A stretch of DNA of 64,000 nucleotides from Nitrospirota bacterium (GCA_963721805.1 CAVRJY010000001.1:1024001-1088000), one strand, 5' to 3'; positions 56,920-61,167 are shown, numbered from the stretch's first letter. A program made the numbers and translations. Notes: generated from the letters alone by a model not told the origin.

Positions 56920-57012
56920 CTACGTCTTCTTGACTTCCGCTCCGGTTTTTGCCGATAGATCGGCGATCAACCCTACGTGCACCGACTCGACCTCGTAATC
57001 CATAGGCACGCG
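56920..57012 (-). pseudogene. Displaced pheT 3' end, copy P2
   Basis: Translates EVESVHVGLIADLSAKTGAEVKKT* versus PheT EVETVHAGLIADLSAKTGAEVRKA*. Confidence 0.9.
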
Positions 57013-57048
57013 TATCATCTTTTTGGCGGCCGCATGATATAATTATTA

Positions 57049-57285
57049 ATGCCGACGGTCCTGCGGATAGGGGCGTACAGGTTTCATTTTTATTCTGACG
57101 AACTCAGGGAACCGCCCCATATACATGTAGAGGCCACGGATGGAGAGTGCAAGTTCTGGCTCGACCCGATCAGGCTTGCGAGGAACAAGGGCCTCAGCCC
57201 GCATGTCCTGCGCGAGCTTGAAAGGCTCGTTTATGAACATCACGCATTTTTGAAGGAGAAATACCATGAGTTCCACAACATTTGA
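57049..57285 (+). CDS. DUF4160 domain protein (putative TA component)
   Basis: [25 protein letters not shown]....GECKFWL. Confidence 0.88.
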
Positions 57286-57535
57286 AAAAGAGCCCACGGT
57301 CGAACCCGCTGCAATAAAGGCTTGGGCTGAGGGCAGGAAGGTCTTTGTGGAGCTGACGGACGGCCGCATCATAGGATTCCCCGCCAACAGGTTCATGCGT
57401 TTGAAGGCCGCCAATGACGAGCAACTCAAGGAAGTACAGTTGCGCCTTAACGGTTATGCCCTTAGGTGGGAATCACTTGACGAGGACATCACTGTGCCTG
57501 GCATTGTAGCGGGCAATTTCGAGCTGCCGCAATAG
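57266..57535 (+). CDS. DUF2442 domain protein (putative TA partner)
   Basis: [12 protein letters not shown]...[17 protein letters not shown]. Confidence 0.88.
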
Positions 57536-57551
57536 CGGCGAGAGAAAAACC

Positions 57552-57709
57552 CTACGCTTTTCTTACTTCCGCTCCAGTTTTGGCCGACAGATCAGCAATC
57601 AACCCCGCGTGCACCGACTCGACCTCGTCGTCCGTGAGCGTGCGTTCTGCAAAGCGGTAGCCGATATTAAACCAAGGCTCTTCCTGACCTGCGGGATGAT
57701 TTATGCCCT
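57552..57709 (-). pseudogene. Displaced pheT 3' end, copy P1
   Basis: Translates ..FNIGYRFAERTLTDDEVESVHAGLIADLSAKTGAEVRKA*; homology decays with indels near 57670-57709. Confidence 0.92.
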
Positions 57710-57832
57710 CTCCTTATTGTGTGATAAGATTAGCCATAAGTGATAAATATGCGATGTTAAACGGAAACTTCAAGATAGAACGTGTTGCCGAGCCTGTGTC
57801 CTTGGCTGCTGCGCGCGCAGAAACGGATGCGA

Positions 57833-59074
57833 ATGATGCCGGATAACGAACAGCCTGAATTCCCTCCAAGGCATGAGCGGCACCGGGTGATTCGCTTCGA
57901 GCCGTCCGTCGGCACCATAATCATCTTGGTCCTCCTGGCCCCCGCGCTATGGGTGCTGAACCGGCTGTTGCCGGTGGTTATGGTGCTCGTGGCGGCCCTC
58001 ATCATCGTCGGCACCGTAAGCCCCGCTGTCCGGTGGCTCGAAAGGCGGCGCATGCGCCGGGGATATGGCATCGCGATCGTCTTCACCGGAATCCTTTTGC
58101 TCACCGTCCTGTTCGTCACGATGACGATCCCCTCGCTTATGGCGCAGGTGACGAACCTTCTGGCCCAGGAACCCGCCTTGCGGGAACGCCTGGCTAACTG
58201 GCTGTCGGGCTACCCCATGACCACCCAACTGGCCGACTTGCTTCGCGACCTGCAGCCCGGCTATCTGATGACGGCGGCCATCTCGAACGCCCTCGAGTTC
58301 TCCCGACGCGTCATCATGGTCTTCGCGTATATAATGAGTTCCGTATTCCTCGCCCTGTATATGATGATCGACCGCGATAGGCTGCGCGGAGGACTCTTTC
58401 TGGTGGTCCCCAGAAGCCACCACATCCGGCTTTCCAGGATCATGATGAACCTTGAAACCATCGTCGGCGGTTATATCCGGGGGCAGGTTATCACCTCCGC
58501 CTTAATGGTCATTTTCGTGTTTTTTCTCCTGAAGGCCTGCGGCATTTCAAACGCCTTGGCCATTGCGGCGTTCGCGGGTGTCGCTGACGTCCTGCCCTAT
58601 GTCGGAGCCCTGCTGTCGGTCGGGGCCACGATGATAGCGGCTATATCCAGCGACCCCGGAGTCATTTTCATAGTGCTGGTGCTGATGCTCGCATATGAGG
58701 AACTGGAGAGCCGCCTGATCATTCCCCGCATCTATGGACGCGAGCTGCGGCTCCCGTCATCCGTGATCCTGTTGTCGCTATTGACCGGGACAGTATTATT
58801 CGGCATCCCCGGGGCGCTTCTCGCGCTTCCGGTGGCGGCCGCGCTGCGGATGCTTATCGAGGAGCTGCGCGTCGAGCTGCCGGGCCAGCAGAAGCAGGCA
58901 GAGGATCTGGAGGTCATGCAACGTGACGTCCTCGGTGAACGGGAATATGAGCGCCGGGCCGAGGGCATGCCAGCCGAGCAGGCCGCCGCCATCGCCATAG
59001 AGATCGCGGTCGGCCGCGATAAGGAAGAGCATAGGCCGCCGCCAACGAAGACGGATGAGCCGCCAATCGAATAG
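57833..59074 (+). CDS. AI-2E family transporter
   Basis: PAVRWLERR, GGYIRGQ, LPYVGA, IPRIYGR, GIPGALLALPVAA motifs. Confidence 0.9.
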   Translation: MMPDNEQPEFPPRHERHRVIRFEPSVGTIIILVLLAPALWVLNRLLPVVMVLVAALIIVGTVSPAVRWLERRRMRRGYGIAIVFTGILLLTVLFVTMTIPSLMAQVTNLLAQEPALRERLANWLSGYPMTTQLADLLRDLQPGYLMTAAISNALEFSRRVIMVFAYIMSSVFLALYMMIDRDRLRGGLFLVVPRSHHIRLSRIMMNLETIVGGYIRGQVITSALMVIFVFFLLKACGISNALAIAAFAGVADVLPYVGALLSVGATMIAAISSDPGVIFIVLVLMLAYEELESRLIIPRIYGRELRLPSSVILLSLLTGTVLFGIPGALLALPVAAALRMLIEELRVELPGQQKQAEDLEVMQRDVLGEREYERRAEGMPAEQAAAIAIEIAVGRDKEEHRPPPTKTDEPPIE

Positions 59075-59115
59075 TTGGTAGCGTCTTCCATGCGCGGTGC
59101 TGTAAAAAGCCCCGA

Positions 59116-61167
59116 CTACGCTTTCCTGACTTCAGCCCCTGTCTTCGCTGAGAGGTCAGCTATCAACCCCGCGTGCACCGTCTCGACCTCGTCGTCCGTA
59201 AGCGTGCGCTCCGCCGAGCGATACCGGATATTAAACGCGAGGCTCTTCTTGCCCTGCGGGATGTTCTTGCCCTTGTATGAGTCAAAGACGTGCGCTCCAG
59301 CAATAAACTCCGACGGATAGGCGCGTATCATGCGCTCGATATCACCTGCGCGCGCGGTCTCGTCGATCAGAAGCGCGATGTCACGCTCTATCGCCGGATA
59401 GCGCGGGATTGGCGTGTATTTCCTGATGCCCCCAAGCGCGAAGCGCAGCGCGTCGATCTCCAGCTCGAACACGAAGACATCCGAGCGCGCCTTCACGTCA
59501 AACGCAGCGACCACGTCGGGGCGGAGCGCGCCTATAAACCCGGCCCTGCGGGGGTCGATCATCACGTCAGCGGCCTTGCCGGGCTGCAAGAAGGGCTCGA
59601 GCGTCGGCGTGAAATCGACCCCGCCGATCTTCATACCAGCGAGCATACCCTCCAGAGCGCCCTTCATCAGGTAGAACTCTTCGGTCGTATCTTTGTACAG
59701 CGAAGGGACCTTCTCGCGGTACAACAGTCCGCCGATGAGCGGGACCTCGTCCGCCTGTATGCCGCCGTTTTTGTAAAACGCCTTCGCGGTCTCAAAGAGA
59801 CGGATATCGCGCATGCCGCGCGAGAAGTTATGGCTGAACGCGCCTATCAGCGCCGGGACGAGTGTGGTGCGTAAGAGTCCGTCTTCCTGCCTTAGCGGGT
59901 TTTGGATAGGCACGCACTCGCGCCGGCGGTCATTGGCCGCGAGCCTCAGCAGATCGAGGTGCGCCGGGTTTAAAAAGCTCAGCGTGATCTGCTCGCTGAA
60001 GCCCTCCTTGCGAAGCAGGGTCTTAACGTCCGAGATAAACGCGCGCTCCGTGAGGTCGGCCTCGGACGCAATGCTCGTCATCGGCATCGCGGAGGGGATG
60101 TTGTTATACCCGTAGAGCCGCGCGACCTCCTCGATCACGTCCGCGTCCATCGTGATATCCGGCCTCGACGAGGGCGGGACGACCTCGAAGCTCTCGCCCA
60201 TTGCCTTAACGCTGTCAGCGACCTTATTAACTATCGCGACGATCTCGTCGTCAGTGAGTTTTATCCCGAGCATCCGGTTGACCTTCTCGAACTTGACGTT
60301 GATCTTAAGCGGCTCGTACTTGGCTGGGTATGCATCGACGAGCGCCCCGGCCATGCCCCCTGCGGTCCCGATGATCAGGCGCGTCACGCGGTCGAGCGCC
60401 GTGGCGACTATCTGTATGTCCGTGCCGCGCTCAAATCTGTATGACGACTCGGTCTTTAGCCCGAGGGCCTTGGAGGTCTTTCTTACGGATTCCGGCCTGA
60501 ACCATGCGCTTTCGATGAACAGGTCGGTCGTCTCTTGGCGGACCTCGCTGTTTAGGCCGCCCATCACGCCCGCGACCGCCACCGGCCGCTCCGCGTCCCA
60601 TATCAGGAGGCTGTCTTCGGGGATCGCGCGCTCGACCTTATCGAGCGTGGCCATCTTGAGTCCGGCCCCCGCGCGGGCAACGCGGATCTTCTGGCCCTTG
60701 AGGTACGCGAGGTCAAACGCGTGCAGCGGGTGGCCGAACTCTAAAAGCACATAGTTGGTGCAGTCCACGACGTTGTTGATCGGCCTGATGCCGCAGATCT
60801 CAAGCCTCTGGCGCATCCACTCGGGGGATTCGCCGATAGTGACGCCGTGTATCACGCGCCCGGTGTATCTGGCGCAGAGGTCGGGGTCGGCTATCTCGAT
60901 TGGGAAGCTTTCATCGCTCTGCTCGGCGACCGCGTGCTCCGGCATCGTGATTGCCGCGCCAGTCAGCGCGTGCACCTCGCGGGCGATTCCCAGTATGCTC
61001 AGGCAGTCAGGGCGGTTCGGGGTGACGTTGACTTCTATCGCCAGATCATCGCCAACCCGCTCCATGCCCTCGACCTCCAGCCCGGCCATCGTGAGGCGCG
61101 CGTCGAGCTCCTCGGGCGTGAGCCCTGCGTCGATGAGTTCCCTCAGCCAGTTATACGATATGCGCAT
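59116..61167 (-). CDS. pheT: Phenylalanine-tRNA ligase beta subunit (short form, no B2 tRNA-binding domain)
   Basis: ISYNWL, VTPNRPDCLS, RPINNVVD.TNYV, SYRFERG, RDIA, KKSLA, RTLTD motifs. Confidence 0.96.
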   Translation of the reverse strand: MRISYNWLRELIDAGLTPEELDARLTMAGLEVEGMERVGDDLAIEVNVTPNRPDCLSILGIAREVHALTGAAITMPEHAVAEQSDESFPIEIADPDLCARYTGRVIHGVTIGESPEWMRQRLEICGIRPINNVVDCTNYVLLEFGHPLHAFDLAYLKGQKIRVARAGAGLKMATLDKVERAIPEDSLLIWDAERPVAVAGVMGGLNSEVRQETTDLFIESAWFRPESVRKTSKALGLKTESSYRFERGTDIQIVATALDRVTRLIIGTAGGMAGALVDAYPAKYEPLKINVKFEKVNRMLGIKLTDDEIVAIVNKVADSVKAMGESFEVVPPSSRPDITMDADVIEEVARLYGYNNIPSAMPMTSIASEADLTERAFISDVKTLLRKEGFSEQITLSFLNPAHLDLLRLAANDRRRECVPIQNPLRQEDGLLRTTLVPALIGAFSHNFSRGMRDIRLFETAKAFYKNGGIQADEVPLIGGLLYREKVPSLYKDTTEEFYLMKGALEGMLAGMKIGGVDFTPTLEPFLQPGKAADVMIDPRRAGFIGALRPDVVAAFDVKARSDVFVFELEIDALRFALGGIRKYTPIPRYPAIERDIALLIDETARAGDIERMIRAYPSEFIAGAHVFDSYKGKNIPQGKKSLAFNIRYRSAERTLTDDEVETVHAGLIADLSAKTGAEVRKA

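Follow-up and report, generated by a model that had tools for sequence, protein, structure and literature searches.

In a Nitrospirota genome assembly (GCA_963721805.1), within a stretch of 64,000 nucleotides that we analysed as a whole (C1:1024001-1088000, hereafter the window, from whose first letter positions are counted), the essential gene pheT, coding for the beta chain of phenylalanyl-tRNA synthetase, is followed by two further copies of its own 3' end, each set apart by a small unit of cargo genes. The three copies, which we call P0 (the end of the live gene), P1 and P2 with increasing distance from pheT, diverge from one another as alleles do and show a mosaic breakpoint, the cargo is foreign in character, and no recombinase gene lies nearby. 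From these observations we infer the order of events, the structure of the donor DNA and the enzyme involved. The explanation that we favour, with a confidence that falls a little short of even, is homologous recombination by the host of incoming DNA that was already flanked by a pheT end on one side and by a pheT-end fossil on the other. The stretch between pheT and the next conserved gene, typA, would then be a small accessory islet to which related, unsampled lineages contributed DNA at least twice in succession; each import would have delivered one cargo unit and, along with it, a new version of the last ~16 codons of pheT.

Similarity searches, with E-values computed against the whole 2.78-Mb assembly, recovered three direct copies of the pheT 3' end and no fourth one in the assembly, and they located the two extra copies exactly where a first-pass annotation of this DNA had placed them. 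P1 (57552-57709) aligns with P0 over 159 nt at 83.0% identity (E 1e-39). The older displaced end, P2 (56920-57012), aligns with P1 over 78 nt at 87.2% identity (E 4e-19) and with P0 over 88 nt at 77.3% (E 4e-13); all three lie on the minus strand. The live gene (59116-61167, minus strand) is intact, and Pfam recognises all the domains of its 683-aa product (B3_4, B5, tRNA_synthFbeta and FDX-ACB). It ends with a tail made of the final 15 sense codons and a TAG stop (59116-59163), which is low in G and C at third codon positions (GC3), preceded by a conserved block formed by codons -31 to -17 (59164-59208). The same parts can be recognised in P1 (tail 57552-57599, conserved block 57600-57644, decayed left arm 57645-57709) and in P2 (tail 56920-56967, conserved block 56968-56994, and a weak left arm). 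TAG is the stop of all three copies, and similarity ends at the stop codon. On the other side, the left boundary is not the same in P1 (158 nt) as in P2 (93 nt), and in both it adjoins unrelated sequence.

The cargo genes are also those described initially, and both units are antisense to pheT. Unit 1, between P0 and P1, consists of a gene for an AI-2E-family transporter, convergent with pheT (57782-59074, plus strand; PF01594 AI-2E_transport, E 7e-47). Unit 2, between P1 and P2, consists of a DUF4160 gene (57049-57285) and a DUF2442 gene (57266-57535) on the plus strand, which overlap by 20 nt (PF13711 and PF10387, E 6e-18 and 9e-16). The two units, of 1.56 and 0.63 kb, have no similarity to each other outside the pheT-like part. 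Pfam gave no nuclease domain in either of them, and the involvement of a homing endonuclease is thus without support here. From its domains, unit 2 qualifies as a putative type II toxin-antitoxin pair of the dhiTA type: the DUF4160/DUF2442 combination is listed as dhiTA of Dickeya dadantii (PMC8198452) and has been linked to plasmid persistence in Thermus (PMC12724237), as far as the excerpts of these two sources indicate.

Sequence comparison shows that the cargo is foreign, judging from the match pattern of the AI-2E gene and the low GC3 of the toxin-antitoxin pair (0.63-0.65). Among 40 relatives, only 10 gave any AI-2E match, the best at 27% identity. Homologues with 47-73% amino-acid and up to 78.7% nucleotide identity are found in metagenome-assembled genomes (MAGs) of many phyla, labelled Burkholderiales, Rhodoferax, Verrucomicrobia, Geobacteraceae, Smithellaceae, Nitrospirota, Acidobacteriota and others, and this similarity is restricted to the coding region. 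At three of 38 such loci examined, the AI-2E homologue, or a small block that includes it, is flanked by direct repeats of neighbouring sequence (L070, 71 nt, 84.5%; L074, 58 nt, 89.7%; L079, 27 nt, 92.6%; these are Deltaproteobacteria, Smithellaceae and unclassified MAGs), and repeats of other kinds occur at three more of the 38; the AI-2E gene may often travel as a small target-duplicating insertion. As for the second unit, the genome holds two other DUF4160/DUF2442 pairs (C1:17391-17844 and C1:499403-499856) and a lone DUF2442 match (C5:49691-49888), with 33-52% amino-acid identity, each adjoining copies of a structured repeat that is described further below.

The way in which the copies differ bears on their origin. 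P0 and P1 differ at 15 of the last 33 codons, 14 times synonymously and once non-synonymously; over the last 30 codons the count is 12 synonymous and one non-synonymous, precisely as given in the first-pass annotation, and the differing codons are concentrated at codons -16 to -4. P1 and P2 differ over their last 27 codons by eight synonymous and four non-synonymous codons. The synonymous share of random single-base changes in this stretch is 25.6%, and the probability of at least 14 synonymous codons out of 15 is 6e-8 if one copy decayed neutrally and 3e-5 under an in-place duplication followed by drift, in a model where the live copy takes synonymous changes only while the fossil drifts. Because this synonymous excess rejects duplication in place followed by drift, the proposal that the copies were once functional is supported, P1 and P2 being former working alleles of related lineages.

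These values bear directly on the idea that the insertion of each unit duplicated the end of its target gene in place, perhaps through the mechanism that spreads the structured repeat, and that the copies then drifted. The pattern predicted by such a process does exist in the order, since in one other genome (G217, C111:3285-3400) a separate contig of 3.8 kb carries a shortened pheT end of 116 nt that matches the live end of the same genome at 92% identity, its nine nucleotide differences changing six amino-acid positions. That case looks like an in-place duplication, unlike the one in the window, where the synonymous excess (p=3e-5) rejects this origin. Moreover, none of 28 inverted pairs of the structured repeat is surrounded by a target-site duplication, the longest common strings being 5-9 nt, as in 300 random controls. 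We therefore consider in-place duplication very improbable as the source of P1 and P2.

The divergence is also mosaic. Between P0 and P1 only 1/15 third positions differ in codons -31 to -17, as compared with 11/15 in codons -16 to -2 (Fisher p=5e-4); the two blocks have exact runs of 18 and 19 nt in common, and the block is the only part where the alleles are near-identical. Composition follows the same boundary. Whole-pheT GC3 is 0.81, the final 15 sense codons have 8/15, and only five of 669 sliding windows along the gene are as low. From block to tail, GC3 falls from 14/15 to 8/15 in P0, from 15/15 to 5/15 in P1, and from 12/15 to 9/15 in P2, and in P0 and P1 the break comes at the same codon (-17/-16), matching the break in divergence. 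The left arm of P1 is decayed: two residues of the conserved RYRS motif are altered (R->G and S->F), other codons too have changed non-synonymously, and there is a 1-nt gap. P1 thus looks like a three-part hybrid, in which a left arm that has long gone untranslated is joined to the block common to the copies and to a tail that stayed in use up to its displacement. P2 is laid out in the same way with a shorter left arm.

This mosaic weakens a further explanation, homology-facilitated illegitimate recombination, whereby linear donor DNA would have been anchored in pheT by homology while its other joint was formed illegitimately inside the pheT end of the recipient, truncating that end. One-sided homology combined with an illegitimate joint is a documented route for the entry of foreign DNA, according to the portion of PMC3240628 on which we draw, and the differing left boundaries of P1 and P2 against unrelated sequence are what it would leave behind. 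However, it predicts uniform divergence along P1, which does not fit the contrast between 1/15 and 11/15, nor does a decayed left arm next to a clean tail, and two joints would be needed within the last 160 nt of the same gene. We regard it as improbable.

Concerning the possible donors, the two closest PheT proteins in a collection of 5.8 billion proteins are 72% and 68% identical over residues 440-683, and their last 20 residues are almost unchanged. Since the tail peptide is kept in them, diverged congeners are plausible donors of a tail encoding it.

Under host recombination of pre-flanked DNA, the toxin-antitoxin pair would have arrived first and the AI-2E transporter second. Each incoming piece would have recombined with the resident pheT inside the ~45-nt block just upstream of the tail, the left homology arm being pheT itself and the right arm the fossil copy carried by the donor. 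We infer that in the live gene the block at 59164-59208 was the crossover region. Exchange would have been forced into this near-identical block because the tails are too diverged for crossovers. At each step pheT would have kept an intact, protein-identical end, and the old end would have been pushed downstream as an untranslated fossil, P2 and then P1; the tail of P0 was probably imported together with unit 1. A donor that was itself pre-flanked would explain the hybrid nature of P1, whose left part is decayed while its tail is clean and was once functional. Since the peptide encoded by the tails is nearly the same in all copies, a unit could be removed or moved by recombination between any two of them with pheT unharmed. 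The original suggestion that incoming DNA supplied both cargo and a new pheT end, displacing the old one, is supported by the synonymous excess, the mosaic, the atypical tails and the foreign cargo.

Several observations nevertheless weigh against this explanation, and they agree at least as well with a site-specific one. The breakpoints of P0 and P1 coincide to the codon, and one and the same block, of ~21 to 40 nt, is kept at third positions in all three copies between diverged flanks, as a fixed core of an attachment (att) site would also give. All tails, including the supposedly original one of P2 (9/15), are poorer in GC3 than the gene, as if they had been carried on mobile DNA. Such features would be expected if the units were minimal or decayed site-specific elements, similar to cis-mobilizable elements (CIMEs), that accreted in tandem at an att site in the conserved block through a tyrosine or other recombinase encoded elsewhere or since lost, each element bringing a replacement tail (P') of its own along with a left arm (P) that does not code. 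The topology of the stack is exactly attL - element - hybrid att - element - attR, and the left arms are decayed, as expected of a P arm that was never translated. Precedents exist for this process, in that CIMEs devoid of an integrase are documented to accrete at the 3' end of a gene (PMC5704250), and older elements can be pushed into islands while partial tRNA copies stay behind (bioRxiv 10.1101/2020.12.28.424599), at least in the sections of these two sources that we cite. Other points against host recombination are that no donor, empty site or alternative haplotype was seen, that the 1-nt gap in P1 rests on an assembly with at least one homopolymer frameshift elsewhere, and that DNA uptake by this organism is unproven. 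The presence of comEC and dprA counts in favour of host recombination, but it is only permissive, since they are also found in 10-11 of 14 control genomes.

We nonetheless rate accretion of site-specific elements, the main rival of host recombination, as possible but less likely. As initially reported, no integrase is found nearby: none of the seven PF00589 matches of the genome, nor its single PF00239 match, falls in the 64-kb window, and no recombinase domain was detected by Pfam among the open reading frames (ORFs) between 47.6 and 63.6 kb. The five integrases that we inspected outside the window lie beside their own tRNA att copies or elsewhere on contigs C2 and C4. The pheT-end core has no other copy in the genome, a degenerate pattern of the tail gave 0 matches in IMG/VR, and no integrase-bearing element using this core turned up among the 250 genomes of the order that were searched for extra pheT ends. 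The two units have no arm sequence in common, and at 0.63 and 1.56 kb they are far below the size of known elements. Finally, the other displaced ends of this genome, described below, are unrelated in sequence to that of pheT.

The copies also lack the symmetry that would be expected of recombination sites. No inverted repeat of at least 8 nt was found within them, and their DNA folds no better than shuffled sequence (z -0.3 to +1.0), with no hairpin. Only two tRNAs reach the Rfam gathering score in the window, and nothing relevant was found by Rfam in 56200-59300 at E<=1, nor did a scan for terminators and promoters give any result at the pheT tails. This lack of dyad symmetry counts against a CIME-like origin, and it argues as well against Xer-dependent modules (IMEX, dif modules), which are flanked by dif-like sites of 28 bp.

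An internal positive control is provided by contig C2 of the same genome, where two adjacent classical islands (301380-341993) occupy a tRNA-Leu(taa), with 30.6 kb, and a tRNA-Val(gac), with 9.7 kb. Each shows a displaced 3' part of its tRNA and has integrase genes beside the att copies, and between them the islands contain tyrosine integrases and one serine recombinase. The pheT stack differs from these integrase-made islands of its own genome.

The signature of a displaced gene end is not confined to pheT. The scan of the genome for other such ends that the first-pass annotation had proposed yielded candidates most of which are tandem paralogues (e.g. the type IV pilin pair at C1:402913/403744) and were rejected, and only two stood up, the 3' end of an HPP-family gene and the 5' end of selA. 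In the first case, the last ~17 codons of a gene for an HPP-family membrane protein (C2:435838-436611) recur 957 nt downstream of it; as read from the alignment, four codons of this copy differ synonymously, a fifth replaces P by S (P->S), and the stop codon is another one. The two copies bracket an outer-membrane beta-barrel gene (locus C2:434883-436611), and a structured repeat lies at 434186-434359. In the second case, a copy of the first ~18 codons of selA (C2:88958) lies 2.3 kb upstream of the gene (locus C2:86665-89034), with six synonymous and four conservative changes, also read from the alignment, and a B12-binding radical-SAM gene and a structured-repeat copy are found between the two. 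All three loci are in islets with the structured repeat, and their repeated sequences are mutually unrelated, which argues against one sequence-specific enzyme. We favour host recombination because there is no recombinase gene or site, the units have no arms in common, and the same scar is present at unrelated sequences.

The recurrence of the signature at two other loci also speaks against an artefact in which the pheT ends of co-assembled strains were chained into one contig. In favour of an artefact, the assembly is of metagenome type, and a homopolymer frameshift at runs of C8 and C7 splits an AcrB-like gene in the window. However, the longest exact matches between the copies (19, 21 and 11 nt) are too short to mislead a graph or a long-read assembler. 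The copies are moreover cut short on their left side, where they run into cargo sequence unrelated to pheT, and the contig has a length of 1.55 Mb with ~190 copies of a repeat of 180-435 nt resolved. We give this explanation hardly any credence.

Extra pheT ends are rare but recurrent in the order. A search with the last 49 residues of PheT gave a match in 228 of 251 genomes (this one and 250 others). Three matches were found only in this genome and two matches in four others: G183 has two full pheT genes on two contigs, with 9% contamination; in G224 the second match is cut off by the contig end; G217 has the shortened copy mentioned above; and in G030 (C311:1054-1269) the second match is a foreign piece of pheT, which breaks off where the conserved block would lie and lacks the tail.

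A PheT homologue was present in 38 of 41 genomes searched, at no more than 56% identity. No second pheT end was found downstream of pheT in 20 relatives, matches of 20-34 nt in L007, L011 and L012 being at chance level; the downstream DNA available was at least 6.9 kb in 14 of them and less than 2.6 kb in the other six, and the gene end was wrongly placed for L002. Nine proteins of the window, including those of typA, AI-2E and both DUF genes, had no match in loci L001-L064, and synteny is therefore not conserved at this distance. When metagenome contigs were scanned with the 229 C-terminal residues of PheT, 44 loci matched, none of them at more than 49% identity. One sequencing run shares words with 56400-59600 (share 0.09), and its contigs cover 57.2-59.2 kb at a depth of ~1 and 56812-57212 at 0, with no joint inside the stack and no alternative haplotype, which speaks neither for nor against the assembly. 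We found no mention of pheT as an insertion site in the literature, in a look too shallow to say that it is not in print.

On the side away from pheT, the stack ends at the element mentioned in the first-pass annotation, a copy of the high-copy structured repeat (SRE; 56355-56790, plus strand), and between this copy and P2 lies an AT-rich spacer (56791-56919; GC ~0.40) that has no other copy in the genome beyond 56860. The sharp 'tail' end of the repeat abuts typA (also bipA; 54488-56353, minus strand; Pfam GTP_EFTU, EFG_C and BipA_C), the conserved gene on the far side of the islet, and its variable 'head' points at the stack. The arrangement expected of an islet, with the head of the repeat towards low-GC accessory genes and the tail against a flanking gene, is therefore found here. 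The repeat gives 193 BLAST matches genome-wide, 173 of which have the common sharp end (at 56355-56359 in this copy), and 93 of these 173 sharp ends are no more than 45 nt from where an open frame with 80 or more codons stops. Elsewhere in the genome, 27 to 28 inverted pairs of the repeat flank low-GC segments of 0.7-3 kb with varied genes. No second, inverted copy lies on the pheT side, between 56790 and pheT, and the next copies are 20 kb and 86 kb away; the locus of the HPP-family gene has a similar one-sided arrangement.

Some further features of the repeat and of the surrounding genes were observed. The stems of the structured repeat appear to change in a compensating way. Other copies in the window are at 31444-31520 and 35382-35820, and near them lie two pairs of direct repeats (31578-31799 / 33270-33492, 88% over 223 nt; 32463-32585 / 33845-33976, 86% over 133 nt), whose members are 1.4-1.7 kb apart. 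PheT has no N-terminal tRNA_bind domain, as in relatives, and pheS is not directly upstream of pheT, a divergent gene for a PCC-domain protein being found there instead (61427-61924, plus strand). A tRNA-Gly proposed by ARAGORN inside pheT (60619-60714, minus strand) has no Rfam support and is probably a false positive. Besides typA and the PCC-domain gene, the ORFs between 47.6 and 63.6 kb code for efflux components and an NMT1-like binding protein or have no Pfam match. Among them, the AcrB-like efflux pump gene (47603-50810, minus strand) is broken into two ORFs (676 and 396 aa) with an overlap of 14 nt at the C8 and C7 runs; this may be either a real frameshift or a homopolymer assembly error.

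If exchange does occur by host recombination through short conserved blocks, the ends of core genes would act as portable landing pads, by which accessory genes, including addiction modules, could move between related lineages with no dedicated mobility gene, and tools that seek integrases or transposases would miss such traffic. The displaced tails are moreover dated fossils of former alleles and keep a record of past imports in an uncultured lineage. A bolder possibility, which seems to us doubtful, is that block and tail form a docking site for integrase-less mini-cassettes, each with one cargo and one synonymously recoded replacement end rich in A and T at third positions, which are plugged in and out by host recombination or by an unrecognised trans-acting function tied to the structured-repeat islets. 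The pheT stack would in that case be one face of a general, undescribed stacking of accessory genes behind essential genes.

The replacement of gene ends is textbook knowledge for integrase-carrying prophages and genomic islands. Here, the scar comes from one-cargo units of 0.6 and 1.6 kb with no recombinase, stacked behind the gene of an essential aminoacyl-tRNA synthetase, in a genome where it is otherwise an abundant structured repeat that gives the accessory DNA its organisation. An integrative element at a gene 3' end is recognised by direct repeats of the target end together with a restored gene, both of which are present in the pheT stack, and by a recombinase gene inside the element beside att, which is absent from it. 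Prophage e14 and phage 21 in icd of E. coli are said to leave a displaced icd 3' end with mainly synonymous differences. As at pheT, the coding 3' end is reportedly replaced there by a synonymously diverged copy borne by the element, and the old end is left as a pseudogene fragment, but that is a single event caused by a prophage with its own integrase, whereas pheT shows two stacked events, tiny units and no integrase.

Elements related to ICESt1 reportedly accrete at fda in Streptococcus thermophilus. More generally, CIMEs are described as accreting in tandem at a gene 3' end in the consulted part of PMC5704250, and the resemblance to the account given there is close: gene-end direct repeats separate units devoid of integrase and transfer genes, the newest unit adjoins the live gene, and the incoming end restores that gene. 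Each unit at pheT is likewise flanked by pheT-end copies and carries cargo only. Unlike CIMEs, the units have no cognate integrase-bearing element and no further att copy in the genome, they are of 0.6 and 1.6 kb with one cargo each rather than remnants of tens of kb, and their repeats are without dyad symmetry.

In the tycheposon islands of Prochlorococcus, repeated integration at one site pushes older elements inward (bioRxiv 10.1101/2020.12.28.424599). These islands share with the pheT stack scattered partial copies of the target gene as relics and 'plug-in' cargo modules. However, tycheposons are described there as targeting tRNA or tmRNA genes and as carrying tyrosine or serine recombinases and replication genes, whereas the stack lies at a protein-coding gene and has no recombinase.

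The analogy with Rhs and contact-dependent inhibition (CDI) arrays drawn in the first-pass annotation holds in part. The topology agrees, since such arrays are said to stack old 3' ends with their associated genes downstream of the live gene, but the displaced ends reportedly encode different toxin domains with immunity genes, whereas at pheT the encoded peptide is the same from tail to tail, and a transporter and a toxin-antitoxin pair make up the cargo, not an immunity gene. Integron arrays are similarly reputed to gather small, promoter-poor, single-gene units, including toxin-antitoxin pairs, at one site. Their usual hallmarks, IntI, attI and the attC hairpin, have no counterpart at pheT, where the separators are coding tails of the neighbouring gene with no significant fold.

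To our knowledge, homology-dependent integration has not been described as a recurrent stacking of cargo behind an essential gene. As a process it is nevertheless close to what we propose, since foreign DNA enters with no integrase through one stretch of homology, and recA-dependent single crossover of circularised DNA gives exactly the duplication topology of the pheT stack, although the part of the literature that we cite presents these as laboratory phenomena of very low frequency (PMC3240628). Taken against all these systems, the pheT stack lacks the integrase of known gene-end accretion and is built of units an order of magnitude smaller, but it shares the same topology.

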